This document shows positions 34,896-64,000 of a stretch of 64,000 nucleotides of DNA, piece by piece (position 1 is the first letter of the stretch; each line of letters begins with the position of its first letter). This stretch comes from a bacterium (GTDB taxonomy: Bacteria; Electryoneota; Electryoneia; Electryoneales; Electryoneaceae): NCBI GenBank assembly GCA_020444265.1, contig JAHLLH010000002.1, positions 297,033 to 361,032 of the forward strand, written 5' to 3'. A program made the position numbers and the translations under genes. Below the pieces are notes generated by a model. That model was not told where the DNA came from, searched no databases, and saw nothing but the letters and a program-made list of their open reading frames with translations.

Positions 34896-35552
34896 ATGAC
34901 CTGCACGGTGCATGTTGCGGTGACCTCGATGTTGCTTGACGAAGGGACTTGGGATCAGGCACTGGCAGTTTTGCCGCAGACAATCATTGAGGAAATCCGC
35001 CGTTTCAGACGTTGGCAGGACCGGACAAATGCTCTCGCAAGCAGGCTCGTACTCCGGAAAGTGTTCAAGGAAAGGGGACTGCCGGACGATTCGCTTGAAC
35101 ATCTGGAACGCACCAGACAGGGACGGCCTTTCCTGGTTGGAATGCCGGACTTCAACATATCTCATTGTGATGGCTTGCTGGTGTGTGCGATCGCAAGCGA
35201 AGGAGAGCTTGGCATTGATGTCGAGAACGTCAGGCCCGTCTCTTTTGATGATTTTCGTACACAGTTCTCAGATGAAGAATGGAGAGCCATCCATCGGGGT
35301 TCCGAGCCGGAACGTCACTTTTTCCGACTATGGACGCTCAAGGAAAGCCTTGTAAAAGCTGATGGCAGAGGGTTGGGCCTTGACCTGCTCACCATTCAAC
35401 ATAGACATGGCATAGCCATTCTTGATGGTAAACAGTATCACGTTCGAGAACTTGAGCTTGGCGCCGGTTTTTGTGCCCATGTGGCGAGCAGAGAACCGAT
35501 AACCGAGGTACATATCCAGTGGGAAGAAAAATGGTATCAACCATCCGAGTGA
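34896..35552 (+). CDS. 4'-phosphopantetheinyl transferase, Sfp-type
   Basis: FNISHCDGLLVCAIA...GIDVE and FRLWTLKESLVKADGRGLG (W/FxxKESxxK) motifs of Sfp/EntD-family PPTases. Confidence 0.85.
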   Translation: MTCTVHVAVTSMLLDEGTWDQALAVLPQTIIEEIRRFRRWQDRTNALASRLVLRKVFKERGLPDDSLEHLERTRQGRPFLVGMPDFNISHCDGLLVCAIASEGELGIDVENVRPVSFDDFRTQFSDEEWRAIHRGSEPERHFFRLWTLKESLVKADGRGLGLDLLTIQHRHGIAILDGKQYHVRELELGAGFCAHVASREPITEVHIQWEEKWYQPSE

Positions 35553-40641: not shown

Positions 40642-40839
40642 TGTCCATGTGCTGTTGGCCCGCACAATCCCGTGCGGGCCAACAGCCTTTTGTTTTATCG
40701 TCGTAGATATGGACTCTGCACGGTTTGGGAAGATGGTTCAGAATCGTGTGGGTCTGGGGGGAACCTCGTGAAGAAGCTGTTCAAGGTAGATATGAATGTT
40801 GCAGATGGTATTGCTGATTCGATTGGGAGGAAGCCGGAG

Positions 40840-45060: not shown

Positions 45061-45251
45061 GCGAGAGATTAAAGGAGAGAGCGTTCCCTTCACATGTGAA
45101 ATCCCCGATGTGATTGAAACGTAGGGCAATAGATACGCCCTAAAGAGTTAGGTGTTTCTAAGATTTTCAAAAAAAATCGTGCGCCCATGACTTCGATATG
45201 CGAAGGGGGGAATGCACGCATGGGAAAGTACTTGGGACAAGTGAGGTGGTC

Positions 45252-49148: not shown

Positions 49149-49323
49149 ACCAAGTCTGTTCCCCGATTGGGTGCCGTTGGCCAGAGACGGTCAGCGGCAC
49201 CCAAAACGGGGTTGCAGCTACCTGTTCTACACGCTGTTCCGATTGGTAAACGTTTGAAAGCCTGCTCAATCCTGAAACGGGGGGATGCAGGAGATGAGAA
49301 GACTGGCAAGGAAAGACCTGAAG

Positions 49324-52300
49324 ATGAAAAAATTCGCGTACGTATGGTTGATCGCAAGCATGGTTGTTTCTTCGGCTGCAGCGAAGACCACTCCTGGTGT
49401 TTCCACACAGTTTCCGGAACGTACCACAGATGTGGTTACATCCCTTCCGCTAATTGGGTCGAACGTGGCAATTAATAGCCCCGAATACGCAGAAGTGACC
49501 TTCGATAGTGGGAAGCTGTATGTCTCAGGAACGTCTCCCGGACTCCAGATTCACGATGTCTCTTCTCTACCAAGCATAACCCCGCTTGGAATCTACTCCG
49601 GTGATCAGACGTACGGTCTTGGTGTTTCCGGCAATACTGCGCTGGTGGGTGGTACAGGAGATTTCAGCGGTTATATACCTTTTTACGTGCTGGATGTAAG
49701 TAACCCATCATCGCCTGCACAAGTGGGTTCAGGAACGGTGACTGGTTTATCAGATGGTCCGTCCATTGTCAGTGTGCAACTCTTCGGTACAACTGCCGCT
49801 ATTCTTTCAAAGGACCTGCTCCATGGCAGTCAACTCGACTTCTGGGATATATCTACTCCGTCCAGCCCCACCCGGATCAGTTCTGGTACGCCCCCAGCAG
49901 CCGTTACATATGAATCAGAATTGTACCTTTCCGGCACAAAGCTCTATCAGTTGGGGAATAGTGGCGCGGGGGTTGTGGACGTAAGTGATCCCGCCAATCC
50001 AACACACCTGAGCTCGTTCTCTGTAAATACCAGTCCCCAGGCATCACTTACTGCAATTGCAGGCAAAGATGAGATGGTCTTTATTGGCGACGCGAATGGT
50101 AGTGTAAAGTTCTTCGACACATCCGTCTCACCCGCCGTTGAAACCGGATCAATCCAGCTTGGCCAGGGAGTGAAGGATTTGTTGATTGAAGGTGATTATC
50201 TCCTGGCGCTCACAAGTGAGCAGCTTACTGTGTACCACATCGGCCGAGTGGCTGAGGGAGATGCGTACCTCACAGGTTCCCAGGGCGACTTTACTTCTGC
50301 TCACCATGTTCTTGGTGATGGGACTACGGTCTATATCCTTGAGGATGATCACATTTTCGCCTATGATGCCACCCAGGCGTACGTGGAGCCCTCCTTTCCG
50401 GTGATCACCTACACGGAAACGGTGACAAGCGGTTTTCCTGAGATTCAGAGTTCCTTGAGTGTCACAGAGGTATTTGACAGCAACACGCCTTACACGGGCT
50501 TGACCTCGGACAACTTTACTCTTACCGAGAACCTCTCCAGCCAGACAATCTCCGTCCAGGAAGGCACTCCGGGCTCCTACGTTCTGACCTATACCACTGA
50601 AGACTTGAGTGGACAAGGTCAGAGTCGTGATCTTCATCTCGTCCTCACGTACGAGGGTGAAGCGACCGATTCGGTGGATGTGACCTATGTCGTGCCTTCG
50701 ATCGAACTAACGGTTGGCACCGTTGATGTCAGCGAATTCCCGTCCATCAGCTTCCCTGCAACCGTGGTGAACGAGAACGGTGTGAAGCGGACCGGGTTGA
50801 CGACTGCCCATTTCGAGTTGGTGGAAAATGCGGTGACCCAGACCGTGTCGTCCGTGACGGAGCAGGCAGACAGCACCTACATCGTTGGCTATACACCCAC
50901 AGACCTCAGCCATGTTGGGAATCTCCGTACGCTCAACGTAACCATCGACTACAATGGGCTTGAGGCATTTGCATCCGTGGATTATACCGAGCCCACTATT
51001 GCGCCGGCCCTTTCCGTCGAGCTGGTTGACGGGTTGCTCAACTTCCCCACGCTGACGGTGATGATGCAGGTGACAGACGAAATCGAGATACCTGTAGCAG
51101 GTCTTGCCGCTTCTGATATTACGGTGGAAGAAAATGGAATCGTTCCGGAGCAAGTGTCTTTCGGCAACGTAGGTGACGGTTATTACATCATCGGTTATAC
51201 GTCACCGAACGGAATTCCGGACGGCACCACCCGTTCTGTCGAGTATTCCGTAACAAGTGGTGACCTGTCCGACGTGGCAAGCACCACCTATGATGCTCCG
51301 CTGCCCCCGAGCCTGACCATTGGCAATGGCGAAGCTGTGCTGCCAAACGTGGCGGATGTTCCGATTACAGTGGAGAGCTTCGGCAATGTCTCGGTCATGG
51401 AATTCTACATCAACTACGATCCGTCCAAGGTGACCTTTGAGAACATCACAAGCGACGTTGCCGAAGGAATCGTTTTCAATGCATCCGACGGCAACCTCAT
51501 CCTCTCCTGGTTCTCGACCAACCCGATGTACCTGGACGATGGCGACACGTTGCTGACGATGCATTTCGCCACGGATGGCTTCGAGGCCGCTGGCTATGAG
51601 ACCTCCCCGGTAACCTGGGCGGAGGGCACCTATATGGCCAACTACGATGCCGATCTCTTCGAAGGGATCACCTATGAGGATGGTTCGGTGATCGGCCTTT
51701 CGCATGCTGACATTTCAGGTGTCTTGTCCTACTTCACCAGCTCGATCCCACTCGCAGGCGCCGAAGTTGGCCTCGTCGGTGACACCACGTTGTCAGCAAC
51801 CAGCGACGAGAACGGTGCGTATCTCTTCGAAGCAATACTGCCCGGGAGCTACAGTGTGGGAGTCCTGATGAGCGATGAGGGCCATCCCGGGGTCAACACT
51901 CTCGATGCGTATCGTATCCAGATATCCCTGGATGACATCAATCCTTTCGAATCCGGGTACCAGTACTTCGCCGCCGATGTCGATCAGACTCACTTGGTCA
52001 ACACGATGGATGCCTACAAGATCCAGCGTGTGGTGGTCGGGCTCGACGAGGGCTTTGATGCGCCCGATTGGGCATTCATCAGCAGCAGTTTTGCCATGAC
52101 GACCGAGAACTGGGCTGATGCGGAGCTGTACCGCAGCTTCGACCTGATGGGTATCGACAGCACTGGTCTGGATTTCTACGGGGTCCGTCGGGGTGATGCA
52201 AACAACTCCTGGCCAAACCTCTTCCTCGAAACAACCACTGAAGAGGAGATCACCGGCAGCCTGACCATCGCCGATGCGGTGGTGGGACCGGGTGGCAGGA

Positions 52301-52935
52301 CTACTGTCGAACTGGAAGCACTTGGCCTGGGCGAAATTGGTGCGCTGGAATGGCACCTCGAGTTCAATCCGGATGTGGTCACTCTGTTGGACTACGACCT
52401 GCCGGGGATCGGTGGCGAGGTGGTCACCACGACCGACAGCACCATCAGTGTCAGCTGGTTCAACGTCGCCTCGGCGATGAACTGCGATGCCCGTATCCTC
52501 GGCTATCTCACCTTTGAGGCTGTCGAACAGGTCAATGTCGAAAGCGACCTGCACCTATACAGAGTCGTACTCGGCGATGACTCGGGCGAAGAGCTGTGGA
52601 CGGATGTCCAGGATGGCACGATTACCGTTGCCAACATGTCGGACCTGAATTACCAGGGCGCCGAGTTGGTAAGCGAGTGGCAGCTGCGTCCAAGCTACCC
52701 GAACCCGTTCAACGCCTACACCACGCTCTCCTTTGATGTGAAGGATGCGAGCGAGGTGCAGATCCATATCTACAACGTGCTCGGCGACCTGGTCGAGACC
52801 CTCGTGCAGGGCAACCTGCCGAAGGGCCGTTACACGAAGAGTGTTAACGCTCAGAACTGGTCGTCCGGCACCTACTTCGTCGTCATGAAGACCCAATCCT
52901 TCAACAAGGTCCAGAAAATCGTCCTGTTGAAGTAA
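49324..52935 (+). CDS. Large secreted T9SS cargo protein (paralog): beta-propeller-like N-region, Ig-like repeats, cohesin-like, CarbopepD_reg-like, dockerin-like, cohesin-like, T9SS CTD
   Basis: Start MKKFAYVWLIASMVVSSAAA (alternative upstream ATG at 49285). C-terminal ~520 aa ~85-90% identical to 45252..49148. CTD EWQLRPSYPNPFNAYTTLSFDV...KIVLLK. Confidence 0.8.
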   Translation: MKKFAYVWLIASMVVSSAAAKTTPGVSTQFPERTTDVVTSLPLIGSNVAINSPEYAEVTFDSGKLYVSGTSPGLQIHDVSSLPSITPLGIYSGDQTYGLGVSGNTALVGGTGDFSGYIPFYVLDVSNPSSPAQVGSGTVTGLSDGPSIVSVQLFGTTAAILSKDLLHGSQLDFWDISTPSSPTRISSGTPPAAVTYESELYLSGTKLYQLGNSGAGVVDVSDPANPTHLSSFSVNTSPQASLTAIAGKDEMVFIGDANGSVKFFDTSVSPAVETGSIQLGQGVKDLLIEGDYLLALTSEQLTVYHIGRVAEGDAYLTGSQGDFTSAHHVLGDGTTVYILEDDHIFAYDATQAYVEPSFPVITYTETVTSGFPEIQSSLSVTEVFDSNTPYTGLTSDNFTLTENLSSQTISVQEGTPGSYVLTYTTEDLSGQGQSRDLHLVLTYEGEATDSVDVTYVVPSIELTVGTVDVSEFPSISFPATVVNENGVKRTGLTTAHFELVENAVTQTVSSVTEQADSTYIVGYTPTDLSHVGNLRTLNVTIDYNGLEAFASVDYTEPTIAPALSVELVDGLLNFPTLTVMMQVTDEIEIPVAGLAASDITVEENGIVPEQVSFGNVGDGYYIIGYTSPNGIPDGTTRSVEYSVTSGDLSDVASTTYDAPLPPSLTIGNGEAVLPNVADVPITVESFGNVSVMEFYINYDPSKVTFENITSDVAEGIVFNASDGNLILSWFSTNPMYLDDGDTLLTMHFATDGFEAAGYETSPVTWAEGTYMANYDADLFEGITYEDGSVIGLSHADISGVLSYFTSSIPLAGAEVGLVGDTTLSATSDENGAYLFEAILPGSYSVGVLMSDEGHPGVNTLDAYRIQISLDDINPFESGYQYFAADVDQTHLVNTMDAYKIQRVVVGLDEGFDAPDWAFISSSFAMTTENWADAELYRSFDLMGIDSTGLDFYGVRRGDANNSWPNLFLETTTEEEITGSLTIADAVVGPGGRTTVELEALGLGEIGALEWHLEFNPDVVTLLDYDLPGIGGEVVTTTDSTISVSWFNVASAMNCDARILGYLTFEAVEQVNVESDLHLYRVVLGDDSGEELWTDVQDGTITVANMSDLNYQGAELVSEWQLRPSYPNPFNAYTTLSFDVKDASEVQIHIYNVLGDLVETLVQGNLPKGRYTKSVNAQNWSSGTYFVVMKTQSFNKVQKIVLLK

Positions 52936-53073
52936 GGAAGAAGAGTAGCACATGATCTCAGCTTTGATACATTTTGCATCGATGCGGTTCGTTCGGGGAA
53001 GCGATGTTTCCCCGAACGGTCAGCTCGATCAAACAGCTATCGTCCCGCAGGGACAGGAGAACTTGAGGGGGCT

Positions 53074-56000
53074 ATGGGACTGAAAAAATCCAAACTGGCC
53101 GCACTGCTGTTGCTTGTCGCACTTCCGCTTGCAGCGAAAAGCCAGACCCTGGTACAGATTCCTGACCAGGTGGTCAACTCGGGTGAGACGGTCGAGGTTC
53201 CGCTCGTGGTCCAGGACTTCAACGACGTTGCTGTCTTCGAGATGTACATCGACTACTCGAGTTCCGTGCTCGAATATGTCTCGATGACCGGGCCGACTCC
53301 CTCGCCAGTAGTCAATGACGTTGGCGGCAGGACCATCATCTCATGGCTCAGTACCAACCTGCTTAGCCTCGAAGATGGCGAAACGTTGATGACCCTGACC
53401 TACCAGGTAAATGGTGCGCCGGGCGAATCGACAGTGATGGACTTCACCTCCAGTTCCTATCTGGCCGACGAGAACAGCCTGGTGATTCCGACCACCTTCG
53501 AAGATGGTCAGATCGAAGTCTTCAACCCGCAGCCTCCGGCGGCCTTCAACCTGGTTTCGCCCGCGAATGGGGCGTTGCTGACCACCCTGACACCTGAGCT
53601 GGTCTGGAATGCGACCACCGATCCAAACCCGGATGATGTTCCGACGTACAACATCTACCTCGATACCCAGGCCGACCTCTCGACCATGCAGCTTGTGGGC
53701 GAGGGAGTGAGTGAGGCGAGCTTCAGCCTGGATGCGTTGATTGACGACGAGACCTACTACTGGACCGTCTTCGCGACTGATGTGAACACCGACGGCACTT
53801 GGGCGTCGGATACTCTCTCATTCTCGACCGCAGTACCGGATCCTCCCTCCGCATTTTCTCTGATTACACCTGCAGAGGACGACACGCTGAACAGTACGGA
53901 GGTCTTTTTCCAGTGGGAAGCCTCTGTCGATCCCGATCCGGGCGAGAACGTGGTTTACGATGTCTACATCGACACGGATGCTGATATGGCTGAAGCAGTG
54001 CCGCTTCAGTCCTTGATTACAGACACGGAATTCACTTCGACGATCGAGGATGGCCTGACCTACTACTGGACCGTTCATGCGATCGATGCCTCCACCCTCG
54101 AGACGATTTCCTCGGACACGGTGATGTTTGTAGTCAACGAACCGGATCAGCCACTCGATTTTGCCTATGTCTCGCCCTCAGACGGCGCCGAATTGAACGA
54201 GCCCGAGGTGACGGTTCTTTGGCGCACCGCCGAAGATTCCGACTTGGCGGATCTCGTTATCTACCGGATTGAATGGGGCACCGACCCTGAGTTTGCCGAA
54301 TATTTTGAAACGACGACCACAGATACTACGTATACCATCACCGATCTTGCGAACCCGGCGAACCGTTCGAAACGTTTAACAGACTCGTCAGGTAGAGGTA
54401 ATGGCACCTCCGAACCGGACGATCTGCCGGACAACAGCACTGTGTTTTGGAGGGTTGTCGCGATAGACAGGTTTGGGTTGGAGACAGTAGGTCAAGAAAA
54501 TCAAGCGTGGTCGTTCACTGTTGAATTGCCCAACTCTCCCGAAGCGTTCACCCTGCTGACCCCGGAAGACGAGACAATCCTGGAGAGTCTGGATACATGG
54601 CTGACCTGGGAGGCGACCATCGATCCGGATGATGTGGAACGGTTGCAGCATTACGATGTCTGGCTCGATACCCAGGCCGACCTTTCGACGGCCCAGCTGA
54701 TCGCGGACAGCCTTGGTGACATTGAGCATTTTATCGCAGAGCTTGAGGACGATCAGAACTATTACTGGACGGTTCGGGCGACGGACGACAACACTGCGGG
54801 CAGATGGGCCTCCGACACGCTTTCCTTCAGCACGGCGTACCCCGAAGCGCCGCTTGCCTTCACTCTCATCTCGCCGGAAGAAGGCGCCGAAATTTCGGCC
54901 ACCAGCGCAACGCTGACCTGGAACGCGACCACCGATCCGGACCCGGATCAGATACCGACCTACGATGTCTGGTTGGATACGTTCCCGGACCTCTCGACCG
55001 GGCAGACGGTTGCTTCCGGCCTGACTGGCACCGAATTCACGGTTGAGGATCTGCTGGACGACCACACCTATTACTGGGCCGTCCATGCGACCGACAGCAA
55101 TACCCCGGGCACTTACTCGGACACCCTCTCCTTTGTCACCAACCAGCCCGAGTTGCCTTCCGAATTCTCCCTGCTGACACCGCTGGAGGATGACACGGTC
55201 TGGGCGGGTCTGGATACGACCCTGACTTGGGAAGCCTCGGTTGATCCGGACCTCGACCAGGTGCCGTTTTACGACGTATGGCTCGATACCCTGGCTGACC
55301 TCTCCACTGCTGAGTTGGTGGCGGACAGCATCGAACCAGCGGAGTTCCTGATCGCTGATCTACTGGATGACCACACCTACTACTGGACGGTTCGTGCGAC
55401 CGATATCAACTCGCCGGGACGGTGGGCGTCGGACACCCTCTTTTTCCACACTTACATGCCCGAGCAGCCGACCGCCTTCAGCTTGGCGGCACCAGCGGAC
55501 AGCACGGTGATCTCGTTCGATCCGCCATTCGATGTGGAGCTTTTCTGGCACCCCTCGGTCGATCCTGACCCGGAACAGACGGTGACCTATGACATCACCT
55601 GCGTTGTCAGTTCCAACTTTGCCGAGGACAGCACCTTTGTCTTCGCGGGGATTGCGGACACCAGTTATGTGATTAACATTCCTGACAGCCTGCACATCGA
55701 AACCTGGCCCGATACGATCAATGCCTTGTGGCATGTGGATGCAATCGCGGCAGGCGATACAGTGCGAAGCACGGAGACCTGGCTGATCATCTATGCGCCG
55801 CCGCTCGATGTAGCCGAGGGCCCGGATGGCCTGCCGCTCGTCTACGGTATCCAGTCGGCCTACCCGAACCCCTTCAACCCGACGATGACAGTGGAGATAA
55901 GCCTGCCACAGGCATCGCCTCTGCGTGTTGAGGCCTTTGATGTGTTGGGAAGGCGGGTTGCCCTGCTGCACCAGGGACGAGCTGAAGCGGGAGTTCGTCA

Positions 56001-56103
56001 GTTCGTTCTGGATGGCTCCAGCTTATCCAGCGGCGCCTATTTCGTGCGGGCCACCGTACCCGGAAAGATGAACCAGGTCCGTAAAGTGGTCCTGATGAAA
56101 TAG
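53074..56103 (+). CDS. Secreted T9SS cargo protein: N-terminal cohesin-like domain followed by ~8 tandem Fn3-like ~96-aa repeats and T9SS CTD
   Basis: Signal peptide MGLKKSKLAALLLLVALPLAA. Cohesin-like VNSGETVEVPLVVQDFNDVAVFEMYIDY. Repeats with consensus ...F.L.SP..GA....T..L.W.A..DPD.D..P.YD..LDT.ADLST.......TYYWTV.A.D.N....W.SDTLSF.T. CTD GIQSAYPNPFNPTMTVEISL...AYFVRAT...KVVLMK. Confidence 0.85.
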   Translation: MGLKKSKLAALLLLVALPLAAKSQTLVQIPDQVVNSGETVEVPLVVQDFNDVAVFEMYIDYSSSVLEYVSMTGPTPSPVVNDVGGRTIISWLSTNLLSLEDGETLMTLTYQVNGAPGESTVMDFTSSSYLADENSLVIPTTFEDGQIEVFNPQPPAAFNLVSPANGALLTTLTPELVWNATTDPNPDDVPTYNIYLDTQADLSTMQLVGEGVSEASFSLDALIDDETYYWTVFATDVNTDGTWASDTLSFSTAVPDPPSAFSLITPAEDDTLNSTEVFFQWEASVDPDPGENVVYDVYIDTDADMAEAVPLQSLITDTEFTSTIEDGLTYYWTVHAIDASTLETISSDTVMFVVNEPDQPLDFAYVSPSDGAELNEPEVTVLWRTAEDSDLADLVIYRIEWGTDPEFAEYFETTTTDTTYTITDLANPANRSKRLTDSSGRGNGTSEPDDLPDNSTVFWRVVAIDRFGLETVGQENQAWSFTVELPNSPEAFTLLTPEDETILESLDTWLTWEATIDPDDVERLQHYDVWLDTQADLSTAQLIADSLGDIEHFIAELEDDQNYYWTVRATDDNTAGRWASDTLSFSTAYPEAPLAFTLISPEEGAEISATSATLTWNATTDPDPDQIPTYDVWLDTFPDLSTGQTVASGLTGTEFTVEDLLDDHTYYWAVHATDSNTPGTYSDTLSFVTNQPELPSEFSLLTPLEDDTVWAGLDTTLTWEASVDPDLDQVPFYDVWLDTLADLSTAELVADSIEPAEFLIADLLDDHTYYWTVRATDINSPGRWASDTLFFHTYMPEQPTAFSLAAPADSTVISFDPPFDVELFWHPSVDPDPEQTVTYDITCVVSSNFAEDSTFVFAGIADTSYVINIPDSLHIETWPDTINALWHVDAIAAGDTVRSTETWLIIYAPPLDVAEGPDGLPLVYGIQSAYPNPFNPTMTVEISLPQASPLRVEAFDVLGRRVALLHQGRAEAGVRQFVLDGSSLSSGAYFVRATVPGKMNQVRKVVLMK
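53520..55800. repeat. Intragenic tandem repeats (~288 bp, ~8 copies) encoding Fn3-like modules in 53074..56103
   Basis: Protein repeats share YYWTV.ATD.N....WASDTLSFST and LDTQADLST motifs (GACCTACTACTGGACCGT / TATTACTGGACGGTTCG etc.). Divergent at DNA level but clearly periodic. Confidence 0.7.
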
Positions 56104-56128: not shown

Positions 56129-56172
56129 TGGGCAGCACCCCTCAGGTTTTTGAAGGGGTGCTGTTTTGTTCC
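56129..56172 (+). terminator. Rho-independent terminator downstream of 53074..56103
   Basis: GCACCCCT-CAGGTTTTTGA-AGGGGTGC stem followed by TGTTTTGTT. Confidence 0.6.
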
Positions 56173-56243
56173 GCCCGGTCCGAAAAGTCCCTACATTGCT
56201 GGCGAGTGGAAGAGAGTCATTTTGTCGGGAGGGGGGAAGCAGG

Positions 56244-56543
56244 ATGAGTGAGGCGCGTAAACAGTGGATGCAGCTGCCAGACATCGTCTTTCGCGATGAT
56301 TTTCAGGACGATGCTCTCCTCTTCGACCCGGAAACAGACAAGGCGTTTCGATTGAACCGTACAGGAGTTCTCGTATGGAACGCACTCGAACAGGGGGCGA
56401 CAGTCGAGGAAGTGATCGAGCGAGTCCGTGCGAAAACAAGCGACCACCCTGCCTCGCTTGAGGAGGATGTGCGTGCCTTTTTCCGGTTGCTACAGGAGAA
56501 GTCTCTGATCGGACGAGTCAGCGGGCTGAACGACCGAGGGTGA
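56244..56543 (+). CDS. PqqD-family protein (RiPP recognition element-like peptide chaperone)
   Basis: ~99 aa: LPDIVFRDDFQDDALLFDPETDKAFRLNRTGVLVWNALEQGATVEEVIERVRAKTSDHPASLEEDVRAFFRLLQEKSLI matches the PqqD/RRE pattern (D..LL.D..TG....LN.TG..IW..L..G.T..EI...L...Y......E...DV..FL..L...GLI). Start at MSEARKQW with GGGAGGGGGGAAG RBS. Confidence 0.75.
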   Translation: MSEARKQWMQLPDIVFRDDFQDDALLFDPETDKAFRLNRTGVLVWNALEQGATVEEVIERVRAKTSDHPASLEEDVRAFFRLLQEKSLIGRVSGLNDRG

Positions 56544-56547
56544 GTGA

Positions 56548-57420
56548 ATGAGCATCGCCTACCACCTGCAGCTAGCCGATGGCACCTGTTGGCAATTTGA
56601 AGCGGATACAGCCCTTACTCCCTGGTTGGCCGATTTTGCATCGATCCTCTCTCTTCCTGCTGCCGCTGACCCACCCGACTCCTCTTCATGGACCTTCTCG
56701 GTTCACTCCACAGCACCTTCTACCCTGTCCATTGATAGCCTTCAGTGGTCGATGTATGGAGTGAACTTCCAGCTCAGCGAATCCGAGAAAAAGGTCAGCG
56801 CTGTTGTACCAGCAAGCCTCGAGGGGGAGCGACGCATTTACTCGATGTGGTCGATGGTTCAGCCGCTCTATCGTCGAGCGACCCTGCGAGGAGGTGGACC
56901 GTTGCATGCTGCCCTGTTGGCGCGTCACGGGGTTGGTGTGCTGATCGCAGCACCTGGCGGGACGGGAAAAACCACCACCTTTCATCGTTTCAGCGAACCG
57001 TGGAAAAAGGTGACGGACGACGAACTGCTGGCGGTGAACACGGACTCCGGTTATGTAATCCACCCCTTCCCGACCTGGAGCCGATTTCTGCTCGATCCGG
57101 GGAACCATCGTTGGAATGTCAACCAGATGCTTCCCCTCGGTGCCTGCTTTTTCATGCAACAGGGGGAGGACGTACAGATCGACCGTCTCGGGCAGAGCGA
57201 AGCCGCGGTGCTGATCCATCAGTCGATGCGTCAAATCCTGCGACGAGGATGGCAGGCAGCTGGAACAGCGCAGGAAAAGAGACTGAAGCTTGCCGCCTTC
57301 GATTCCTCCTCGGAGCTCGCAAAGCAGGTGCCTTGCTGGAGACTGACCCTTCCACTCGAGGGGACGTTCAGCGACCAGATTGAAGAGGTGTTGAGGAGGG
57401 AGGGGGTGTGGGATGAGTGA
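56548..57420 (+). CDS. HPr kinase-related P-loop protein (HprK C-terminal-domain-like kinase)
   Basis: LHAALLARHGVGVLIAAPGGTGKTTTFHRF....VTDDELLAV matches the HprK catalytic-domain pattern (HAs.v..g.GVLI.G.SG.GKS...L...G..LvsDD.v). Starts 5 nt after the PqqD stop. Stop overlaps next gene start. Confidence 0.75.
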   Translation: MSIAYHLQLADGTCWQFEADTALTPWLADFASILSLPAAADPPDSSSWTFSVHSTAPSTLSIDSLQWSMYGVNFQLSESEKKVSAVVPASLEGERRIYSMWSMVQPLYRRATLRGGGPLHAALLARHGVGVLIAAPGGTGKTTTFHRFSEPWKKVTDDELLAVNTDSGYVIHPFPTWSRFLLDPGNHRWNVNQMLPLGACFFMQQGEDVQIDRLGQSEAAVLIHQSMRQILRRGWQAAGTAQEKRLKLAAFDSSSELAKQVPCWRLTLPLEGTFSDQIEEVLRREGVWDE

Positions 57421-58048
57421 AGCAGCACAGGATTCTCCTCACGCGGTGAACTCCTCAACGGGCGGGCATGAGGTACGGTTTGTCGGCACCAGCATGTCGC
57501 CACTCTTCACCTCCCTCGACCAATTGCGAATTGAACCGATCTCCTTTCAGGAGGTCCATCGCGGGGACATCCTCGTCTTTCAACACCCTTCCAAACCGAT
57601 CCAGGTGGTCCATCGTGCGGTCGAAGTGAAGGATGATTATGTCCGAACTCGTGGCGACAATTTGAGCGCTCCCGATCCTTATACCCTGACCGAACTGGAT
57701 CAGCTTCATCGTGTGGTTGGGGTTGCGCGAGGCGGTACCCTTCATTCCGTGCTGAATGGTCCAAAAGGTTTCCGTTATGCGAGACGGCGTCACCGGATCC
57801 TTCTCCTGCGTCGGAGCATCCGTCGCCCACTCCTGCTCGCCGTGCTGGGGGTCCATGCCATTGCCCCGGTGCTGCTGCAGCGCATTCTGCGGAAACATTT
57901 GCGAGTGGTAGACAAGCAGGTCAACGGAACCACCACGCAGCTCCTTCTGCTTGGAAAGCGACCAGTCGGAAAACGTGCCACAAGCCGCTCCGAATGGGAG
58001 CTGAACCCTCCTTTTGACAAGATTTTATCCACCACCCATCTGCCCTGA
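57413..58048 (+). CDS. S26-family (signal peptidase I-like) serine peptidase, soluble (no N-terminal TM anchor)
   Basis: GTSMSPLF (SPase I box B-like 'GxSMxPT'), GDILVFQHP (box C-like 'GDxVxF'), VRTRGDNLSAPDPYT (box D-like 'GDNRxxSxDSR'). No hydrophobic N-terminus. Translationally coupled to the kinase gene (ATG overlaps its stop). Confidence 0.65.
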   Translation: MSEAAQDSPHAVNSSTGGHEVRFVGTSMSPLFTSLDQLRIEPISFQEVHRGDILVFQHPSKPIQVVHRAVEVKDDYVRTRGDNLSAPDPYTLTELDQLHRVVGVARGGTLHSVLNGPKGFRYARRRHRILLLRRSIRRPLLLAVLGVHAIAPVLLQRILRKHLRVVDKQVNGTTTQLLLLGKRPVGKRATSRSEWELNPPFDKILSTTHLP

Positions 58049-58179
58049 ATACCGACCAGGCTCCGGGGGAACCGCACGAGCGGCGTTCTCCAAAGTGTGC
58101 TACCTTTCACAAGGTTGGTTGACGGGAAGTACATGGGGAATCCGTCTACCATCGAAACTTGTCTTGGGGGTTGGCAGGC

Positions 58180-58947
58180 ATGAAGACCAGGGTATTGCGC
58201 TGGACCGTCCTTTCCGGATTTGCAGCGTTTGTTTTGTGGTACGCGTTCGGATATGGGGATCGATCCTTCGAAAATCTCTGTCCCTTCGGGGGTGTTGCGA
58301 GCTTGTATGGTTTGGCTACCGGCGGGGAGTTTACCTGTTCGCTCGGCCCGGCAAACTTGTCGCTGCTGATCGGGATTGTGGTTCTCGCCCTGATCGCGAA
58401 ACGAGCTTTCTGCGGCTGGGTCTGCCCGCTCGGGTTTATCGGAGAGTTGATCTACCGTCTTCGTGAAAAGGTGACACGGAAACGGGTCAAGACCATCCCA
58501 CCGCGTCTCAATGCCTGGCTCAAACCCCTTCGATACATTGTGTTGGTGCTGGTCCTCTATTTCACCTGGCAGACCGGCGACCTGATTTTCCGCGGGTATG
58601 ATCCCTTCTATGCGATCTTCTCCGGGATGGGACACGGCACCCTCGGCTGGATTACCTGGAGCATCCTTGCCATCTTCCTGATCGGATCATGGTTTGTTCC
58701 GATGTTCTTCTGCCGCTATTTCTGCCCACTCGCGGCCACCCTCGACCCCTTTAGCCGTCTCGGGTTGATCAAAGTGAGCCGGAATGCCGAGACCTGCATC
58801 GACTGCAACAAGTGCCACAAGGTCTGCCCGCATGATCTGCACCCGGAAAAGGTGGATGTGCTGCGTCACCATGATTGCACCAACTGCATGGAATGCATCG
58901 ACGCCTGCCCCATCGCGAAGTGTATGACCCTGAAAGCGAAAGTGTAA
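58180..58947 (+). CDS. NapH/MauN/CcoG-like integral-membrane polyferredoxin (2x [4Fe-4S] CxxCxxCxxxCP)
   Basis: Start at MKTRVLRW (ATG with GGGGG upstream; the ORF track used an upstream TTG). TM segments with CPFGG and CGWVCPLG motifs. C-terminal ferredoxin motifs CIDCNKCHKVCP and CTNCMECIDACP. Confidence 0.75.
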   Translation: MKTRVLRWTVLSGFAAFVLWYAFGYGDRSFENLCPFGGVASLYGLATGGEFTCSLGPANLSLLIGIVVLALIAKRAFCGWVCPLGFIGELIYRLREKVTRKRVKTIPPRLNAWLKPLRYIVLVLVLYFTWQTGDLIFRGYDPFYAIFSGMGHGTLGWITWSILAIFLIGSWFVPMFFCRYFCPLAATLDPFSRLGLIKVSRNAETCIDCNKCHKVCPHDLHPEKVDVLRHHDCTNCMECIDACPIAKCMTLKAKV

Positions 58948-58959
58948 GGAGAAGAAACG

Positions 58960-59340
58960 ATGACGATCCCACGTTGGGTGATCCCGGTTCTTGTGGTTGT
59001 CTTCATGTTCGGTGGGTATGGCCTCCGTCTCGCTTTCACTCAGCCCACGACAAACGTGGTCTTCGCTGAGCAGACAGCGAGTGGGGAGATGGCGAAGATC
59101 GAGGCGACGGTTCAGGGAGTAAAATGCAAGGGCACCGCAGGCTTCTTCACAAAGATGTACAACGAAACGCCCGGCATTTACACGATCAAGACCTACGCCT
59201 CCGAGCACAAGGCGGTCTTTACCTACGATCCCTCTGTCACCTCGCCCGACGACATCAAGGCGGTGATGGAGAAGAAGCTGACCTTTGGCGATGGGTCCAA
59301 ACGTCAGATTTTCACCTGTCTGGAGATGGTGGAGAAGTAA
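58960..59340 (+). CDS. Small membrane-anchored protein with ferredoxin-like/HMA-like fold lacking the CxxC metal motif
   Basis: N-terminal TM (IPVLVVVFMFGGYGL). Region EATVQGVKCKGTAGFFTKMYNETPGIYTIKTYASEHKAVFTYDPSVTSPDDIKAVMEK resembles an HMA-like beta-alpha-beta-beta-alpha-beta unit with a single Cys. RBS AAGGAGAAGAAACG. Confidence 0.5.
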   Translation: MTIPRWVIPVLVVVFMFGGYGLRLAFTQPTTNVVFAEQTASGEMAKIEATVQGVKCKGTAGFFTKMYNETPGIYTIKTYASEHKAVFTYDPSVTSPDDIKAVMEKKLTFGDGSKRQIFTCLEMVEK

Positions 59341-59375
59341 GGCACAACGCTCACGATTGTACTGTTGATAGGGTG

Positions 59376-59405
59376 GCCCGACTTGCTCGCAAGTCGGGTT
59401 TACTT
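59376..59405 (+). terminator. Rho-independent terminator ending the 56244..59340 operon
   Basis: CCCGACTTG-CTCG-CAAGTCGGG perfect 9-bp stem followed by TTTACTT. Confidence 0.65.
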
Positions 59406-59761
59406 ATGAAAATATCGCATCAGGTCTCGGCGACACCCTGCTGGGAACGAGGTGGGTGGCATGGTTATCGCAGATAGCCATGCCACCCGCCGCTAAGGAC
59501 CTGACGGAACCATCCCGTGGACCTGACAGAACGTTGCATACGTCAAATGTCCACCCCCCAGTCATCCCCAGCGCACAAGCGCGCGGAAGCGGGCTCGAGG
59601 TTGTCGTTGTGCGCGTCGGGGATCCCCGTAGGCGGAGTTTGTGAACCTTGGCGCTTCGCATCAGGGGATCCCCGACGCGACATGGTGGCCTATGGCCACA
59701 ACAGGGTTACACCCTGTTTGTCGCTGGGGATGACAGGTGCGGAAGATGAGGTCCGGGGTGA

Positions 59762-59800
59762 CACACAGAAAAACCCCGACAGCAAGCTGCCGGGGCTGGA
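59762..59800 (-). terminator. Rho-independent terminator for minus-strand gene 59856..63560
   Basis: Minus-strand reading: CCCCGGCAGC-TTGC-TGTCGGGG (10-bp stem, one G-U) followed by TTTTTCTGTG. Lies just downstream of the stop at 59856 on the - strand. Confidence 0.55.
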
Positions 59801-59855
59801 CTATCTCGTGCTGATATGCAAGCTTGGGTGACGGGGCACCCAAGCCACGTACACG

Positions 59856-62800
59856 CTACCGCATCAGCACCACCTTGCGCACCTGGACCGTCTGGCCCGG
59901 TGCGGTGGCGCGGACGAAGTAGACGCCGCTGGCAAGACGGTGGCCGTCGATTACGTACCGATGATGGCCCGCCTGCTTGTGCCCATCACCGAGCAATGCC
60001 ACCCGCTGCCCAAGCAAATTGAACAGCTCGACACGCATCTCCGCCGCCATCGGCAACCCTACGACCACTGTCGCAGTCGGGTTGAAGGGGTTGGGGTAGA
60101 CAGCTTTGATGCCGTACTCAACCGGCATCGTTGTCCACTCATCCACACCGAGGGATGGTGCGAAGAAGACATGGAAGGTGTCCACCGATTGGGTCGTGTC
60201 GCCCTGTGAAATGGCCTCGACCCACCACTCGACTGAGATGGTATCATCCCATTCGGTAAACAACAGCGAGTCCGGCAGGTTCAACGTCAGGCCGTTTTCT
60301 GCCAGGCTGTCCAGCGAGACGGTGGTATCCACCAGCTCCGCATAGGTGACATGACCGAAGAAGCTGTAAAGCAGCTCCGCGCCTTCGTCCGGATCGCTCG
60401 ACTCATCCCACGTGAAGTTGAGCTCCAACGGTGGGAAGTAGGGCACCCAGGTGCTGTCGAACGGGGTCGACAACCCGAAAGGAGTTGGCGGATCGTTCAG
60501 CGTTGTATTGAACGACCATGTTTCGGTCGAGGTACGGTTGCTGTCGGTAAAGGTGTCGTAGGCGAGCACCTTCCAGAAGAGGGTCATGTTGTCCGCGAGG
60601 GCATCCATCGTGTAGAAGGTGTCCAGGCCAACAGCATAGGTGTCGACGACAGCAAATTCCGCGTCCTCACCAAGCAGCAGCTCGTAGCTGATTTCATCAG
60701 CCGGATCATCATCTGTCGCTGCCCGCCAACGGAAGGTCAGGGGCAACTCGGTCACGAGTGAATCCTGCGCAGGGGTGACCAGCGAGAACTCGTTCGGGAT
60801 CGACACACCACGTCCCTGCAAGCTCACCGCGACATCCTCTTCATCCGGATCATCGCTGATCACATGAAGCTCGCCCATCACCTGCTGGTTGAGGATTGGT
60901 GTGAAGAGGACCTCGATCTCGGCGAAGGTTTCCGGTTCGATGACGACGGGATCGTCAAAGACGACAGAGAAGGTGTCCGGGTCGACCATGGTGACAGAGG
61001 TAACTGTCAGATCACCCGTGCCGAGGTTCAGCACTTGCATCATCCAGCTCCCCGATTCACCCAGCAGCACGTTCCCGAAATCGTGGAACGTCTCCTCGAT
61101 GTGGATATCCGGCACCGGCGCCGGGGTTCCGACACCCTGCAGGTTGATGGTGGTCTCCTCCTCATCCGGATCATTGCTGACCAGGGTGATCACCCCTTGC
61201 CGCAGACCAGTAGCATTCGGCGCAAAGGTGATGACAACCGTGCCTGAACCTTCCGGCGCGATGGTGATCGGTTCGGACGTGGTGAAGACTTCATTGCTGG
61301 AGAGGATTTCGCTAATGACCAGGTTTGCTGTGCCGATGTTCTCGACGACAGCGGTCCAGTCGCGTGTCTCGCCAACCGTCACGCTTCCGAAATCATGTAC
61401 ATCGACATCGATGAAGATGTCCGGTGTTCCCTCTTGAACTCCGATGCCGTTGACCGCGATGGTCACTTCGGCTTCGTCCGGGTCATTGCTTGTAAGCGTG
61501 ATGGTTCCTGACAGTTCGCCGCTTTCGGTGGGCGAGAAGGTGATGGTAACCGTCGCGGAACTCTGGGCCGGAATGTTCACCGGACCGGAGGTGGTGAACG
61601 AGGCATTGTCCGTGGTGATCTGGCTGATCACCAGCTCCTCGTCTCCCACATTCTGCACCGTCGTGTTCCACGGCACCTCTTCACCAACCGTGACCTCACC
61701 GAAGTCGTGCTCGGTGTCGGTCAGGGCGATATCGGGGCCGAGGCCGCCGCTGACCGAGGTCAGCTGGCTGACATTGGTGCCGAAACCGAAGCCGAAGGTG
61801 CCGTCCCCAACCGCGTACTCGGGAACTGCGGGCAGCTCCTGCTGTCCTGCTGCAGACCAGATGCGGAACGAAATCATGTTGCCGGGGGTAAAGCCATCCA
61901 ACTCCTGGCTCGCATCGGCCTGCCAGGCGGTGATGGAAGCCGGCCAATCGCCATCCAAAACAAGCGACCCGACACAGAGCTCGCCGTCAAACACTGCGAT
62001 CTCATCGCCAACACCGAGGGCTTCTTCATCGAGCGAGGCTGCCTGCACTACGACTGCGTAAGGCAGACCGGTTGGCTCGACTGGAGTGAAATGGGCATCA
62101 CCGGCTACACCTACACCTGAGACAGTGACGAGAAGCTCTCCCTCGTCCGGATCGTTGCTGGTGACAGCCAGGGATGCCTCGACCAGACCGGTGGTTGTTG
62201 GTGTGAACTGGACGGAGACCCATTCATTCGTTCCGGGTTCAATCACGATTGGAAATGCCGTGTCAATCGTGAATGCCGGGTGATTGCTGGAAACCCCGCT
62301 GACCGTCAAGTCCTGCTCGCCGCTGTTCTGGATTTCCATGCCCCAGACATCGGTGATTCCAACACTGACCTCGCCAAAACCATGCGTTGTCAGGGGAAGA
62401 TGAATATCAGGATCATCTCCCCCACCCGTCGTTGCAACCAGCATGCTGACATTGGTGCCGAAACCAAAACCGAAGGTTCCATCCCCGACAGCGTATTCGG
62501 GCACGGCTGAAAGTTCCTGCTCGCCAAAGGCGGACCAGATTCGGAAGGTGATCGTATTCCCGGGAGTGAACCCATCAAGCTCCTGGCTGGCGTCCGCCTG
62601 CCATGTGGTGATCGATGCTGGCCAATCTCCATCCAACACAAGCGATCCGACACAGAGGGCGCCATCAAAGACGGCGATCTCGTCGCCCGCACCGAGGGCC
62701 TCTTCGTCGAGCGAGGCTGCCTGCACCACAACAGCATAGGGCAGTCCGGTCGGTGGGACAGAAACAAAATGGGCTGGAGCGGCAACACCTTCGCCGCTGA

Positions 62801-63560
62801 CCGCAACTTCGACCGTGGGTTCATCCGGATCGTTGGACGAGATTGTGATCGTCCCCGTGAACATTCCTTCGGAGTTTGGCGAGAAGTGAACCAATACGGT
62901 TTCTTCCTGCTCGGGGTCGAGGGTCAGGTCACTGGGCTCATCAAGAGTAAACGCTTCGTTATCCGATGTGCCATCTGTTAAGGACAACTCTGCTGTACCA
63001 ACATTGCTGATTGTCACCATCCAGCTCAGCACATCGCCAACTTCCACCTGGCCAAAATCGATGGTTGTCGGTGAAACGTTGATGTCAGGCAGATCCGTGC
63101 TGCCGCTTGTCGCGCTCAGCAGGCTGATGTTGGTGCCGAACCCAAGCCCGAAGGTGCCATCACCCGTGAGATAGGTCGCCGCTCCCGCTGCTTCCATCTC
63201 GGCGGAGGCATCGTAGACGAAATAGCTCATCTCGTTGCCGGAGGTAAACCCCTCGAGTCCCTGGCTGGCGTCTGCCTGCCAGGTGGTCACCGAGAGCGGC
63301 CAGCTTTCACCAACCACACCCGCGCCCACACACAGCTCGCCATCGAAGACACCGATTTCATCGCCAGCGACCAGTCCCTCACCATCGAGAGTGGCCTGCT
63401 GGAAGACAACGGCATACGGCAGGCCGGTTGCTCCTACAGGTGTAAAGTGGTCTTGGGCAGCCGCTGGCATTGTGAGAAGCAGCAGGACACCCATCCACAG
63501 AATCAGTTTCTTCATACCATACTCCTTCCTGCAGTCGGTGTGCCCACCGGGCAGATGCAC
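59856..63560 (-). CDS. Giant secreted T9SS cargo protein: 3 near-identical ~225 aa tandem modules, ASH/choice-of-anchor-D-like Ig-fold repeats, Fn3-like repeats, T9SS CTD
   Basis: Signal peptide MKKLILWMGVLLLLTMPAAA. Three copies of HFTPVxPTGLPYAVVVQAASLDEEALGxGDEIAVFDGELCVGS...GDGTFGFGFGTNVS, each followed by DIxLTxTxHDFGEVxVG...SNDPDE...V.GxG repeats. C-terminal Fn3-like repeats resembling 53074..56103. CTD GIKAVYPNPFNPTATVVVGL...GVYFVRAT...KVVLMR. Confidence 0.85.
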   Translation of the reverse strand: MHLPGGHTDCRKEYGMKKLILWMGVLLLLTMPAAAQDHFTPVGATGLPYAVVFQQATLDGEGLVAGDEIGVFDGELCVGAGVVGESWPLSVTTWQADASQGLEGFTSGNEMSYFVYDASAEMEAAGAATYLTGDGTFGLGFGTNISLLSATSGSTDLPDINVSPTTIDFGQVEVGDVLSWMVTISNVGTAELSLTDGTSDNEAFTLDEPSDLTLDPEQEETVLVHFSPNSEGMFTGTITISSNDPDEPTVEVAVSGEGVAAPAHFVSVPPTGLPYAVVVQAASLDEEALGAGDEIAVFDGALCVGSLVLDGDWPASITTWQADASQELDGFTPGNTITFRIWSAFGEQELSAVPEYAVGDGTFGFGFGTNVSMLVATTGGGDDPDIHLPLTTHGFGEVSVGITDVWGMEIQNSGEQDLTVSGVSSNHPAFTIDTAFPIVIEPGTNEWVSVQFTPTTTGLVEASLAVTSNDPDEGELLVTVSGVGVAGDAHFTPVEPTGLPYAVVVQAASLDEEALGVGDEIAVFDGELCVGSLVLDGDWPASITAWQADASQELDGFTPGNMISFRIWSAAGQQELPAVPEYAVGDGTFGFGFGTNVSQLTSVSGGLGPDIALTDTEHDFGEVTVGEEVPWNTTVQNVGDEELVISQITTDNASFTTSGPVNIPAQSSATVTITFSPTESGELSGTITLTSNDPDEAEVTIAVNGIGVQEGTPDIFIDVDVHDFGSVTVGETRDWTAVVENIGTANLVISEILSSNEVFTTSEPITIAPEGSGTVVITFAPNATGLRQGVITLVSNDPDEEETTINLQGVGTPAPVPDIHIEETFHDFGNVLLGESGSWMMQVLNLGTGDLTVTSVTMVDPDTFSVVFDDPVVIEPETFAEIEVLFTPILNQQVMGELHVISDDPDEEDVAVSLQGRGVSIPNEFSLVTPAQDSLVTELPLTFRWRAATDDDPADEISYELLLGEDAEFAVVDTYAVGLDTFYTMDALADNMTLFWKVLAYDTFTDSNRTSTETWSFNTTLNDPPTPFGLSTPFDSTWVPYFPPLELNFTWDESSDPDEGAELLYSFFGHVTYAELVDTTVSLDSLAENGLTLNLPDSLLFTEWDDTISVEWWVEAISQGDTTQSVDTFHVFFAPSLGVDEWTTMPVEYGIKAVYPNPFNPTATVVVGLPMAAEMRVELFNLLGQRVALLGDGHKQAGHHRYVIDGHRLASGVYFVRATAPGQTVQVRKVVLMR
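61400..63480. repeat. Intragenic tandem DNA repeat, ~680 bp period x3 (within 59856..63560)
   Basis: Units beginning near 61771, 62447 and 63127 (e.g. ACATTGGTGCCGAAACCGAAGCCGAAGGTGCCGTCCCCAACCGCGTACTCGGGAAC vs ACATTGGTGCCGAAACCAAAACCGAAGGTTCCATCCCCGACAGCGTATTCGGGCAC) are ~85-90% identical over hundreds of bp. Confidence 0.8.
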
Positions 63561-63598
63561 CTGGCACCTGCCCGGTGGGGCTCAACCGGACATCCACG

Positions 63599-64000
63599 CT
63601 ACTTCAACAGCATGATCTTCTGCATCTTCGTGGCGGACCCGAAGTCCACACGCAGGAAGTAAACGCCGCTGACCATGTTCGGACGGGCCTGCATGATGTG
63701 ACGGTGGTAACCCGCCTTCATCACGAGGTTCTGCTTCGCGACACGCTGGCCAAGCAGGTTATACAGGGTAAAGGTCACTTCACCACCCTCGGGCAGGCCG
63801 AAGGGGATGGTGATGGACGGGTTGAACGGGTTCGGGTAACCATTGCTGACCGTGAACTCGGTCGGCAGTTCGGCACGTTCCACACTAATCCGTGCGCCTG
63901 CGCCTTCACCGAACTTCGCATTGCTCGACTCAGCCTTCAACGGCAGCTCAGTACCATCTTCGCCGATCAGGCGAACCTTGATGTTCTGGCCACGGGTGAA
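63599..64000 (-). CDS. 3'-end of another T9SS cargo gene (5' end beyond window)
   Basis: The frame stays open in the same reading frame to the window edge (ORF track start is a TTG). C-terminus ...TVSNGYPNPFNPSITIPFGLPEGGEVTFTLYNLLGQRVAKQNL...GVYFLRVDFGSATKMQKIMLLK = T9SS CTD. Confidence 0.75.
   Translation of the reverse strand, partial: FTRGQNIKVRLIGEDGTELPLKAESSNAKFGEGAGARISVERAELPTEFTVSNGYPNPFNPSITIPFGLPEGGEVTFTLYNLLGQRVAKQNLVMKAGYHRHIMQARPNMVSGVYFLRVDFGSATKMQKIMLLK

Follow-up and report, generated by a model that had tools for sequence, protein, structure and literature searches.

Positions 56130 to 59400 of a 64,000-nucleotide stretch of contig JAHLLH010000002.1 (assembly GCA_020444265.1, contig positions 297,033 to 361,032; hereafter the window), from a bacterium of the family Electryoneaceae, hold five open reading frames (ORFs) on the plus strand, g1 to g5 (Table 1). 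Do these genes make up one pathway that modifies a peptide, and if so, where is the peptide? An earlier note on this DNA had proposed an uncharacterised cassette that resembles those for peptides that the ribosome makes and that are modified after translation (RiPPs). It described a PqqD-like RiPP recognition element (RRE), an HprK-like kinase, a soluble S26 peptidase, and a NapH-like polyferredoxin with a small membrane protein, the polyferredoxin supplying a redox step. On balance we favor a different answer, which is that the five genes are two unrelated units. The first unit (56244-58048; PqqD, ScmC, and S26) is a core of the SynChlorMet (SCM) type without radical S-adenosylmethionine (radical-SAM) enzymes, and it likely acts in trans. 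The second unit (58180-59340) is a separate module of a NapH-like protein and a protein with a heavy-metal-associated (HMA)-like domain.

The family of the first unit is given by g2, which matches the ScmC model TIGR04249 over its full length (residues 5-282; 196.3 bits, cutoff 125). It also carries the precomputed Pfam assignment PF27840 (ScmC), and NCBI names the identical protein ScmC (MCB2198632.1). The other SCM models are TIGR04248 (ScmD), TIGR04250 (ScmE), and TIGR04251 (ScmF). Because the family of the P-loop protein already has a name, the locus is a reduced member of a catalogued cassette and not a fresh kind of system. So, what stands of the proposed RiPP-like cassette is the conserved core of a PqqD-family protein, a kinase-fold protein, and an S26 peptidase; the novelty does not stand, and the last two genes are bystanders (see below). 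We know of no substrate that has been assigned to the SCM cassette so far. We found no experimental study of the cassette in the searchable literature, and NCBIfam has no model for its precursor.

What kind of enzyme is ScmC? The Walker A motif of g2 (APGGTGKTT) contains K141, and H120, K141, D157, and D158 are kept in 85-88 of 87-88 homologs. The structure of ScmC that AlphaFold2 predicts from a 42-sequence alignment has a pLDDT of 93.1. g2 therefore shows the His-Lys-Asp-Asp motif on an HprK-like fold that marks the lasso-type peptide kinases. In those kinases, this set of residues is catalytic by mutagenesis (PMC9266682), and in PsmK, D158 and D159 are the metal site and D158A/D159A is inactive (PMC6993621). 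The lasso kinases PadeK, ThcoK, SyanK, and PsmK are also HprK-fold P-loop enzymes that are encoded with a PqqD-type RRE (PMC9266682, PMC6993621). By analogy, we infer that ScmC is an ATP-binding phosphotransferase of the phosphoenolpyruvate carboxykinase (PEPCK)/HPr-kinase fold, and it would be a kinase that acts on a peptide.

The claim of an HprK-like kinase held in part: g2 is a P-loop protein with a local match to HprK, and its family is ScmC rather than HprK/P. There was no match to PF07475 (Hpr_kinase_C) at E ≤ 1, and the similarity to HprK sequences from the PDB reached only E = 0.18-0.22, over about 45-51 residues. These scores rule out a bona fide HprK/P, with which g2 shares the fold only, and there are no phosphotransferase system (PTS) genes among the annotated window ORFs of at least 150 amino acids. 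Membership in HPr-rel-A was also rejected (TIGR04352, 17.9 bits against a cutoff of 200; TIGR04353, 19.9 bits against 35). We take HPr-rel-A to be an uncharacterised conserved neighborhood in which a PqqD-family protein goes together with a P-loop protein related to HprK. The pairing in the window is alike, but the proteins are instead of the ScmC/ScmD lineage.

The two other genes of the first unit fit this assignment. The claim that g1 is a PqqD-family protein was confirmed (PF05402, 55.7 bits, cutoff 23.4, E = 6.5e-15), and its best match in NCBIfam is ScmD (TIGR04248, 60 bits). NCBI calls it a 'PqqD family peptide modification chaperone' and also annotates it with 99 amino acids. As for g3, it was rightly described as a soluble S26 protein: it has the S26/S24-like motifs GTSMSP and RGDN and no N-terminal hydrophobic segment or membrane anchor. 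Its alignment to human SEC11C spans the GxSMxP, VHR, and GDN motifs, and Ser27, His67, and Asp82 are invariant in 66-67 homologs; that is, g3 has an S26 fold with a serine nucleophile and a histidine general base. The score against the archaeal/ER-type signal peptidase I model (TIGR02228) is just under the cutoff (44.5 against 51.85 bits). The catalytic beta core of g3 spans residues 19-112; after it come a long helix (116-162) and, at the C terminus, a beta domain. Unlike the S26B peptidases SEC11 and SipW, it lacks the N-terminal anchor, has the long helix and the extra beta domain, and is joined, by fusion or by coupling, to an ATP-binding protein of the cytoplasm. It is annotated at NCBI as a 'hypothetical protein'.

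The long helix of g3 includes the protein's one hydrophobic stretch (residues 141-159, window positions 57833-57889) with a 19-residue Kyte-Doolittle mean of 1.93 (1.74 in the closest relative, L001). Most g3 homologs are below 1.6 on helix hydrophobicity. The stretch is specific to this lineage and lies between Arg-rich segments, so the helix may associate with the membrane in this lineage only. We also considered the Ni-SOD maturation protease (SodX, TIGR02754) and rejected it (29 bits, cutoff 63.25).

To place the locus, we surveyed another 160 ScmC loci, taken from contigs of genomes and metagenomes, plus loci from an exact-protein look-up (162 loci entered the fusion counts). The loci were mapped with hidden Markov models (HMMs) that were built in this analysis, and 47 of them had full context. 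The radical-SAM HMM was built from bona fide ScmE and ScmF proteins. The earlier note had set co-localisation as a test beforehand, and the locus passed: PqqD, the P-loop protein, and the S26 peptidase occur together in most of the 162 ScmC loci. Radical-SAM genes are present in 31 of the 47 full-context loci, and every one of these 31 also has PqqD and a precursor. An S26-like gene accompanies them in 30/31, an ATP-binding cassette (ABC) exporter in 27/31, and NTP_transf_5 (PF14907) in 23/31; NTP_transf_5 is also found in 8 of the 16 full-context loci without radical-SAM genes. A canonical example is L003, from an Anaerolinea metagenome-assembled genome (MAG), which has bona fide ScmE and ScmF radical-SAM genes. 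Its order is precursor(s), PqqD, ScmE, ScmF, S26-like, ScmC, and ABC exporter, often then followed by NTP_transf_5, and g3 is a full-length homolog of its S26-like gene (E = 7e-18).

The precursors in these canonical loci have a leader of the form (K)-x-K-Y-E-x-P-x-L-V-P-L-G-E-M-A-K-G-x-G; the criterion for a canonical leader, K-Y-E-x-P-x-L-x-x-L-G, was drawn from all 31 full-context loci with radical-SAM genes. The core is long and has repeated Cys-x-x-G units (C-T-A-G-like), with a median of 6 Cys (range 2-19). Such precursors lie at 964-1179 and 1269-1469 in L003, at 7197-7601 in L035, and at 651-950 in L053, and there are up to seven copies per locus (L023).

Some individual loci depart from this pattern. 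In a Bacteroidetes MAG with a canonical cassette (L168), a sulfotransferase-like gene (7054-8004, with a faint match to Sulfotransfer_4) directly precedes ScmC, and five tandem genes of 48-58 amino acids follow it. In two 'delta proteobacterium' MAGs (L012, 7863-8486; L010, 7610-8317), PqqD is fused within the ORF to a leader-like K-F-T-Y-E-R-P-M-L-V-D-L, and the fusion in L012 also holds a Cys-rich core. These ORFs would be fusions of a chaperone and its substrate, and no radical-SAM gene lies within 10 kb of either. A 489-amino-acid minus-strand ORF between the PqqD-precursor and ScmC in L012 matched no family.

In 31-34 of the 162 loci, ScmC and the S26 peptidase form a single fused protein, with either gene first; otherwise the two genes are adjacent or overlapping. 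Because of the fusions in both orders, we consider ScmC and the S26 peptidase to be one functional unit. This raises another possibility, that ScmC is not a tailoring kinase but the ATP-driven partner of the peptidase. The three genes would then be a leader-removal machine, an ATP-dependent leader peptidase that is guided by PqqD, analogous to the RRE and ATP-dependent protease of lasso systems. The pair is kept with and without radical-SAM genes, whatever the chemistry of the core, and the window retains exactly PqqD, ScmC, and S26, all of which suggests that powering or gating of the peptidase by ScmC is a close rival to a tailoring kinase. Even so, we think that it is fairly unlikely: the conserved His-Lys-Asp-Asp residues are the catalytic motif of proven peptide kinases (PMC9266682), NTP_transf_5 co-occurs in the proportions given above, and two loci (L006 and L007) have ScmC without a recognisable S26 gene.

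We return to the interpretation that the core is an SCM-type unit with a kinase-like ScmC, and ask which SCM loci are closest to it. In a crude neighbor-joining tree, the ScmC proteins of the window and L001 fall in a clade in which every locus lacks radical-SAM genes (L004-9, L011, L013, L028, and L088). The sources are Hatepunaea, Electryonea, Caldithrix, Tariuqbacter, and related MAGs, all from the Fibrobacteres-Chlorobi-Bacteroidetes (FCB) group, which includes Bacteroidota. The HMM from ScmE and ScmF had no match in the 64-kb window or within 10 kb of any locus of the clade. Similarly, for the twelve closest ScmC proteins from species-representative genomes, there is no radical-SAM gene in the DNA covered, which is mostly about 10 kb on each side.

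These sister loci do have precursors: except in L013, where none was detected, there is an ORF of 47-67 amino acids directly upstream of PqqD. In hhalign, its leader, Y-E-x-P-E-L-x-E-I-x-L-L-D-E-S-A-x-G-[YFW]-S, aligns as a homolog with that of canonical SCM precursors (probability 92.8%, E = 3.9e-7). In contrast to the Cys-rich repeats of the canonical precursors, the core is acidic and rich in Pro, Asp, and Glu, with 0-1 Cys, and it often ends in SFDWL, SFEWL, or KSRQW. The typical order is a cargo gene of the type IX secretion system (T9SS), precursor, PqqD, ScmC, and S26, and then an ABC exporter and/or NTP_transf_5. Most sister loci have NTP_transf_5 (confirmed with Pfam), an ABC exporter, or both, and L011 and L028 encode the S26 peptidase and NTP_transf_5 as one fused protein. 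In L006 (10916-11398) and L007 (10915-11397), the S26 slot after ScmC is taken by a 160-amino-acid hydrophobic protein without a Pfam match.

Thus, the window locus is like canonical SCM in that its ScmC is over the equivalog cutoff, ScmD is the best match for its PqqD, its S26-like protein is a homolog, and the leaders of the sister precursors are homologous. It differs, along with its clade, in lacking ScmE and ScmF and in the Cys-free acidic cores of the clade's precursors. It additionally lacks a precursor, an ABC exporter, and NTP_transf_5. At this locus, the window and L001, its 69%-identical relative, have PqqD, ScmC, and S26 only. L001 was the only close relative in a word-indexed protein search, and a scan of metagenomes gave nothing above 36-44% identity.

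The absence of a visible precursor, which had been noted from the sequence, held up. When we scanned every six-frame fragment of 12 or more amino acids in the 64-kb window and L001 with the leader HMM, the best E value was 12, as compared to 6e-9 to 0.1 in the sister loci. The 140-bp gap upstream of g1, where sister loci hold the precursor gene, has only a terminator. The HMM scan also found neither NTP_transf_5 in the window nor a nearby ABC exporter. One ABC exporter (29913-31559) does score well against the cassette's ABC HMM. We did not assign it to the trio because it is of a generic type and lies 26 kb away, inside a cluster of polyketide synthase and nonribosomal peptide synthetase (PKS-NRPS) genes.

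Could the trio be a non-functional remnant that was left after the loss of the precursor, the exporter, and NTP_transf_5? All of the other clade members have one or more of these, which fits such a loss. We consider this very unlikely because the trio has not decayed. All three ORFs are intact in both genomes, even though they are only 60-80% identical and synonymous divergence (dS) is about 1.2-2.9; the ratio of nonsynonymous to synonymous divergence (dN/dS) is 0.04-0.19 (0.04 for g1, 0.19 for g2, and 0.18 for g3), so the trio is under purifying selection. All of the catalytic and motif residues are retained, as is the translational coupling, with a 4-nt gap between g1 and g2 (56543/56548) and an 8-nt ATGAGTGA overlap between g2 and g3 (57413-57420). 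As the trio is intact and under selection, it most likely acts in trans on a peptide whose gene lies in another part of the genome. If not, its substrate would have to be something other than a classical precursor.

In the mechanism that we propose for the cassette, PqqD would dock the leader of the precursor, and ScmC would phosphorylate the peptide with ATP, by analogy with the lasso kinases PadeK, ThcoK, and PsmK. Where present, NTP_transf_5 might then decorate the phosphate, as PsmN does on phospho-pseudomycoidin (PMC6993621). The PsmN-type NTP transferase of pseudomycoidin works only on the phosphorylated peptide (PMC6993621), and the NTP_transf_5-type enzyme and ABC exporter of the sister and canonical SCM loci parallel the lasso clusters with PsmN, an uncharacterised NTP transferase. 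The S26 partner would release the leader by cutting behind a small-x-small site (either G-x-S or G-x-G), and the ABC transporter would export the product. The parallel with lasso systems ends at leader removal, which we assign to an S26 serine peptidase; the lasso cyclase and the B2 transglutaminase-like protease are absent. Indeed, a lasso cluster was rejected, in agreement with the earlier note: the five genes include no Asn-synthetase-like cyclase or B2 protease, and the other ORFs of at least 150 amino acids that were examined are PKS/NRPS genes, their accessory genes, and T9SS cargo.

What, then, of g4 and g5? The earlier note described g4 correctly as a NapH-like polyferredoxin: it has a Fer4_5 domain (CxxxCP motifs, 61 bits) and then a dicluster ferredoxin domain with two [4Fe-4S] motifs. 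Against the NapH model (TIGR02163), it scores 119.2 bits, below the cutoff of 213, in an alignment that covers most of the profile. Similarly, the small membrane protein g5 has one transmembrane helix, as well as an HMA-like domain (PF00403, 24.9 bits); its GVKCKGTA and FTC motifs are invariant and hold two Cys, with no CxxC. g4 is like the NapH/MauN family in its membrane CxxxCP (Fer4_5) and two [4Fe-4S] motifs, but its constant partner is the membrane-anchored HMA-like protein, and no nap or mau genes lie beside g4 or its homologs in five loci.

If all five genes were one operon, then the polyferredoxin and the small membrane protein could supply a redox step to the RiPP pathway. The genes are indeed on one strand between two hairpins, the same order is found in L001, and the 131-bp gap between g3 and g4 has no terminator-like fold (z = −1.5 relative to shuffled sequence). 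However, among ScmC loci, the NapH/HMA genes are present only in the window, L001, and L087, and in 0 of about 160 others. In three loci without ScmC (L084, L085, and L086), a NapH-like gene is followed by a g5-like partner of 118-127 amino acids amid unrelated neighbors; the g5 partners from L001 and these three loci have 53-89% identity. Hatepunaea meridiana has its NapH/HMA pair on one contig and its ScmC locus on another. We found 581 homologs of g4, and the best 120 are 51-94% identical; those with names come from Hatepunaea, Electryoneaceae, Calditrichaeota, Zixibacteria, and related MAGs. The pair is also far more conserved than the trio, with 94% (g4) and 89% (g5) identity to L001 and dN/dS of 0.04-0.06. 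Last, the clade's precursors do not have Cys or any other obvious redox target. We therefore consider a five-gene operon with a redox step to be improbable. Instead, the NapH/HMA pair is a separate redox/metal module of FCB-group and Zixibacteria genomes that is downstream of the trio by chance in this lineage.

The gap between g3 and g4 is itself conserved (84% identical between the window and L001, even though dS in the flanking genes is about 0.9-1.8), and it contains an operator-like palindrome, which also argues against a single operon. The region from 58049 to 58179 is probably the promoter/operator of g4-g5. The palindrome, TGTGCTACCTTTCACA, resembles a CRP/FNR-type site; it is absent upstream of the homologs in L084-L086.

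A further possibility is that the cassette is tied to T9SS cargo, for example if its peptide controls or modifies surface or secreted proteins, and that the trio in the window acts on or with its neighbors. The surroundings are as the earlier note had described them: seven cargo genes flank the trio, five on the plus strand (37573-56103) and two on the minus strand (59856-64000). In the window, L001, L004-L009, and L088, the gene immediately before the precursor or PqqD encodes a Por_Secre_tail protein. In L011 and L028, a cargo gene is the divergent upstream neighbor and separates the S26-NTP_transf_5 gene from the other genes of the cassette. Thus, a cargo gene adjoins the cassette in nearly every locus of the clade, as compared to 0 of the 31 loci with radical-SAM genes. 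On the other hand, the cargo proteins share only the sorting domain (the passengers are cohesin/fn3, LVIVD, FG-GAP, ice-binding-like, and CBM_4_9), and the leader HMM found no leader-like motif in them. Some FCB genomes are also rich in cargo genes (a control locus, L084, has 3 in 16.7 kb), L013 has no adjacent cargo gene, and in the window a strong terminator separates the cargo gene from PqqD. So, a functional link to the cargo seems unlikely to us, and we view the adjacency as a lead.

Some observations weigh against our preferred interpretation, namely, a trio of the SCM type that acts in trans and an independent NapH/HMA pair. First, g1 does not reach the equivalog cutoff for ScmD (100 bits). 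Second, the kinase activity of ScmC rests on the analogy of fold and motif, as the sequence similarity to HprK/P is marginal (E = 0.18), and the C-terminal Ser that the lasso kinases target has no conserved counterpart in the precursors of the clade. Third, the tree that defines the clade has no support values. Fourth, no substrate gene for the locus was found within the 64 kb covered of a 750-kb contig, so that action in trans would be required. Finally, since the gap between g3 and g4 lacks a terminator and L001 keeps the five-gene order, the trio could be co-transcribed with the NapH/HMA genes.

The layout of the locus is given in Table 1. The five tightly packed genes between two hairpins that had been described were all borne out, including the junctions and the folds of both hairpins. 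The upstream hairpin has a folding energy of −26.5 kcal/mol (z = −3.9 relative to shuffled sequence) and the downstream hairpin −24.1 kcal/mol (z = −5.2); the contig of L001 ends within the start of the same hairpin that follows g5. For g1, the start is an ATG behind a GGAGG-like ribosome-binding site, and the alternative TTG at 56166 is inside the upstream terminator. For g4, the ATG start gives 255 amino acids, which matches the length of the homologs, and the TTG at 58159 is not preferred. A scan for sigma-70 promoters returned no sites, and such a scan is uninformative for an FCB-type organism.

Table 1. Features of the locus, in window positions
Feature	Position	Strand	Length	Description
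Upstream T9SS cargo gene	53074-56103	+		Cohesin, fn3/Ig repeats, Por_Secre_tail (Pfam; C-terminal domain HMM, 109 bits)
Upstream hairpin	56130-56166	+		Intrinsic terminator of the cargo gene; UUUUGUU after the stem
g1	56244-56543	+	99 aa	PqqD-family peptide chaperone (RRE), ScmD-like
g2	56548-57420	+	290 aa	ScmC, PEPCK/HPr-kinase-fold P-loop protein
g3	57413-58048	+	211 aa	Cytoplasmic S26B-like (SEC11/SipW-type, Ser-His-Asp) peptidase
g3-g4 intergenic region	58049-58179	+	131 bp	Palindrome TGTGCTACCTTTCACA at 58096-58111
g4	58180-58947	+	255 aa	NapH/MauN-like membrane polyferredoxin
g5	58960-59340	+	126 aa	One N-terminal transmembrane helix and HMA-like domain
Downstream hairpin	59375-59400	+		Terminator-like, after g5

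Two other kinds of element were considered and rejected. For a structured RNA or riboswitch in or near the cassette, there was only sub-threshold noise from Rfam, and none of the five proteins matched an anti-phage defense system in PADLOC. Downstream of the cassette, between convergent terminators, about 370 bp (59400-59770) contain GGGGATCCCC repeats, with no convincing ORF and no match in Rfam above noise. The ORFs in 59341-59855 do not have homologs and overlap the terminator of the minus-strand gene.

Farther upstream, the window contains a hybrid PKS-NRPS cluster (359-36379). Its first gene (359-5095) combines ketosynthase, acyltransferase, and acyl carrier protein domains with a class-III aminotransferase, which we take to be an iturin/mycosubtilin-type loading module that would serve a beta-amino fatty acid. 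Next come three NRPS genes (5092-10926; 10955-18340, which has an N-methyltransferase domain; and 20053-27561). The accessory genes encode a ParA-like ATPase, two DUF697 proteins, a beta-lactamase-fold protein, a Band_7 protein, a periplasmic binding protein, the ABC exporter mentioned above, a type II thioesterase (33938-34891), and a phosphopantetheinyl transferase (34896-35552).

The locus in the window, being reduced and without a substrate gene, is best seen as a pointer to the family, and the complete sister loci in Electryonea (L005) and Hatepunaea (L004) are better targets. The comparison gives several handles on the SCM cassette: a family of canonical precursors, a clade without radical-SAM enzymes that goes with Cys-free acidic peptides, an HprK-fold protein and an S26 peptidase that form one unit, and NTP_transf_5 as a frequent member, which echoes the pair of kinase and PsmN. 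We tentatively suggest, as a possibility that goes well beyond the assignment of the two units, that the FCB genomes hold a branch of SCM that is independent of radical-SAM enzymes. In this branch, Cys-free peptides rich in Pro and acidic residues would be phosphorylated by ScmC, decorated by NTP_transf_5, freed from their leader by S26, and exported, and the branch would be wired genetically to T9SS cargo genes. The trio in the window would be a satellite without a precursor that serves a peptide encoded elsewhere or the neighboring T9SS proteins. If this is true, then the branch would be a RiPP-like class that has yet to be described, and its leader peptidase would be of a new kind. A cytoplasmic homolog of signal peptidase that removes RiPP leaders together with a partner that binds ATP would be a new route of processing.

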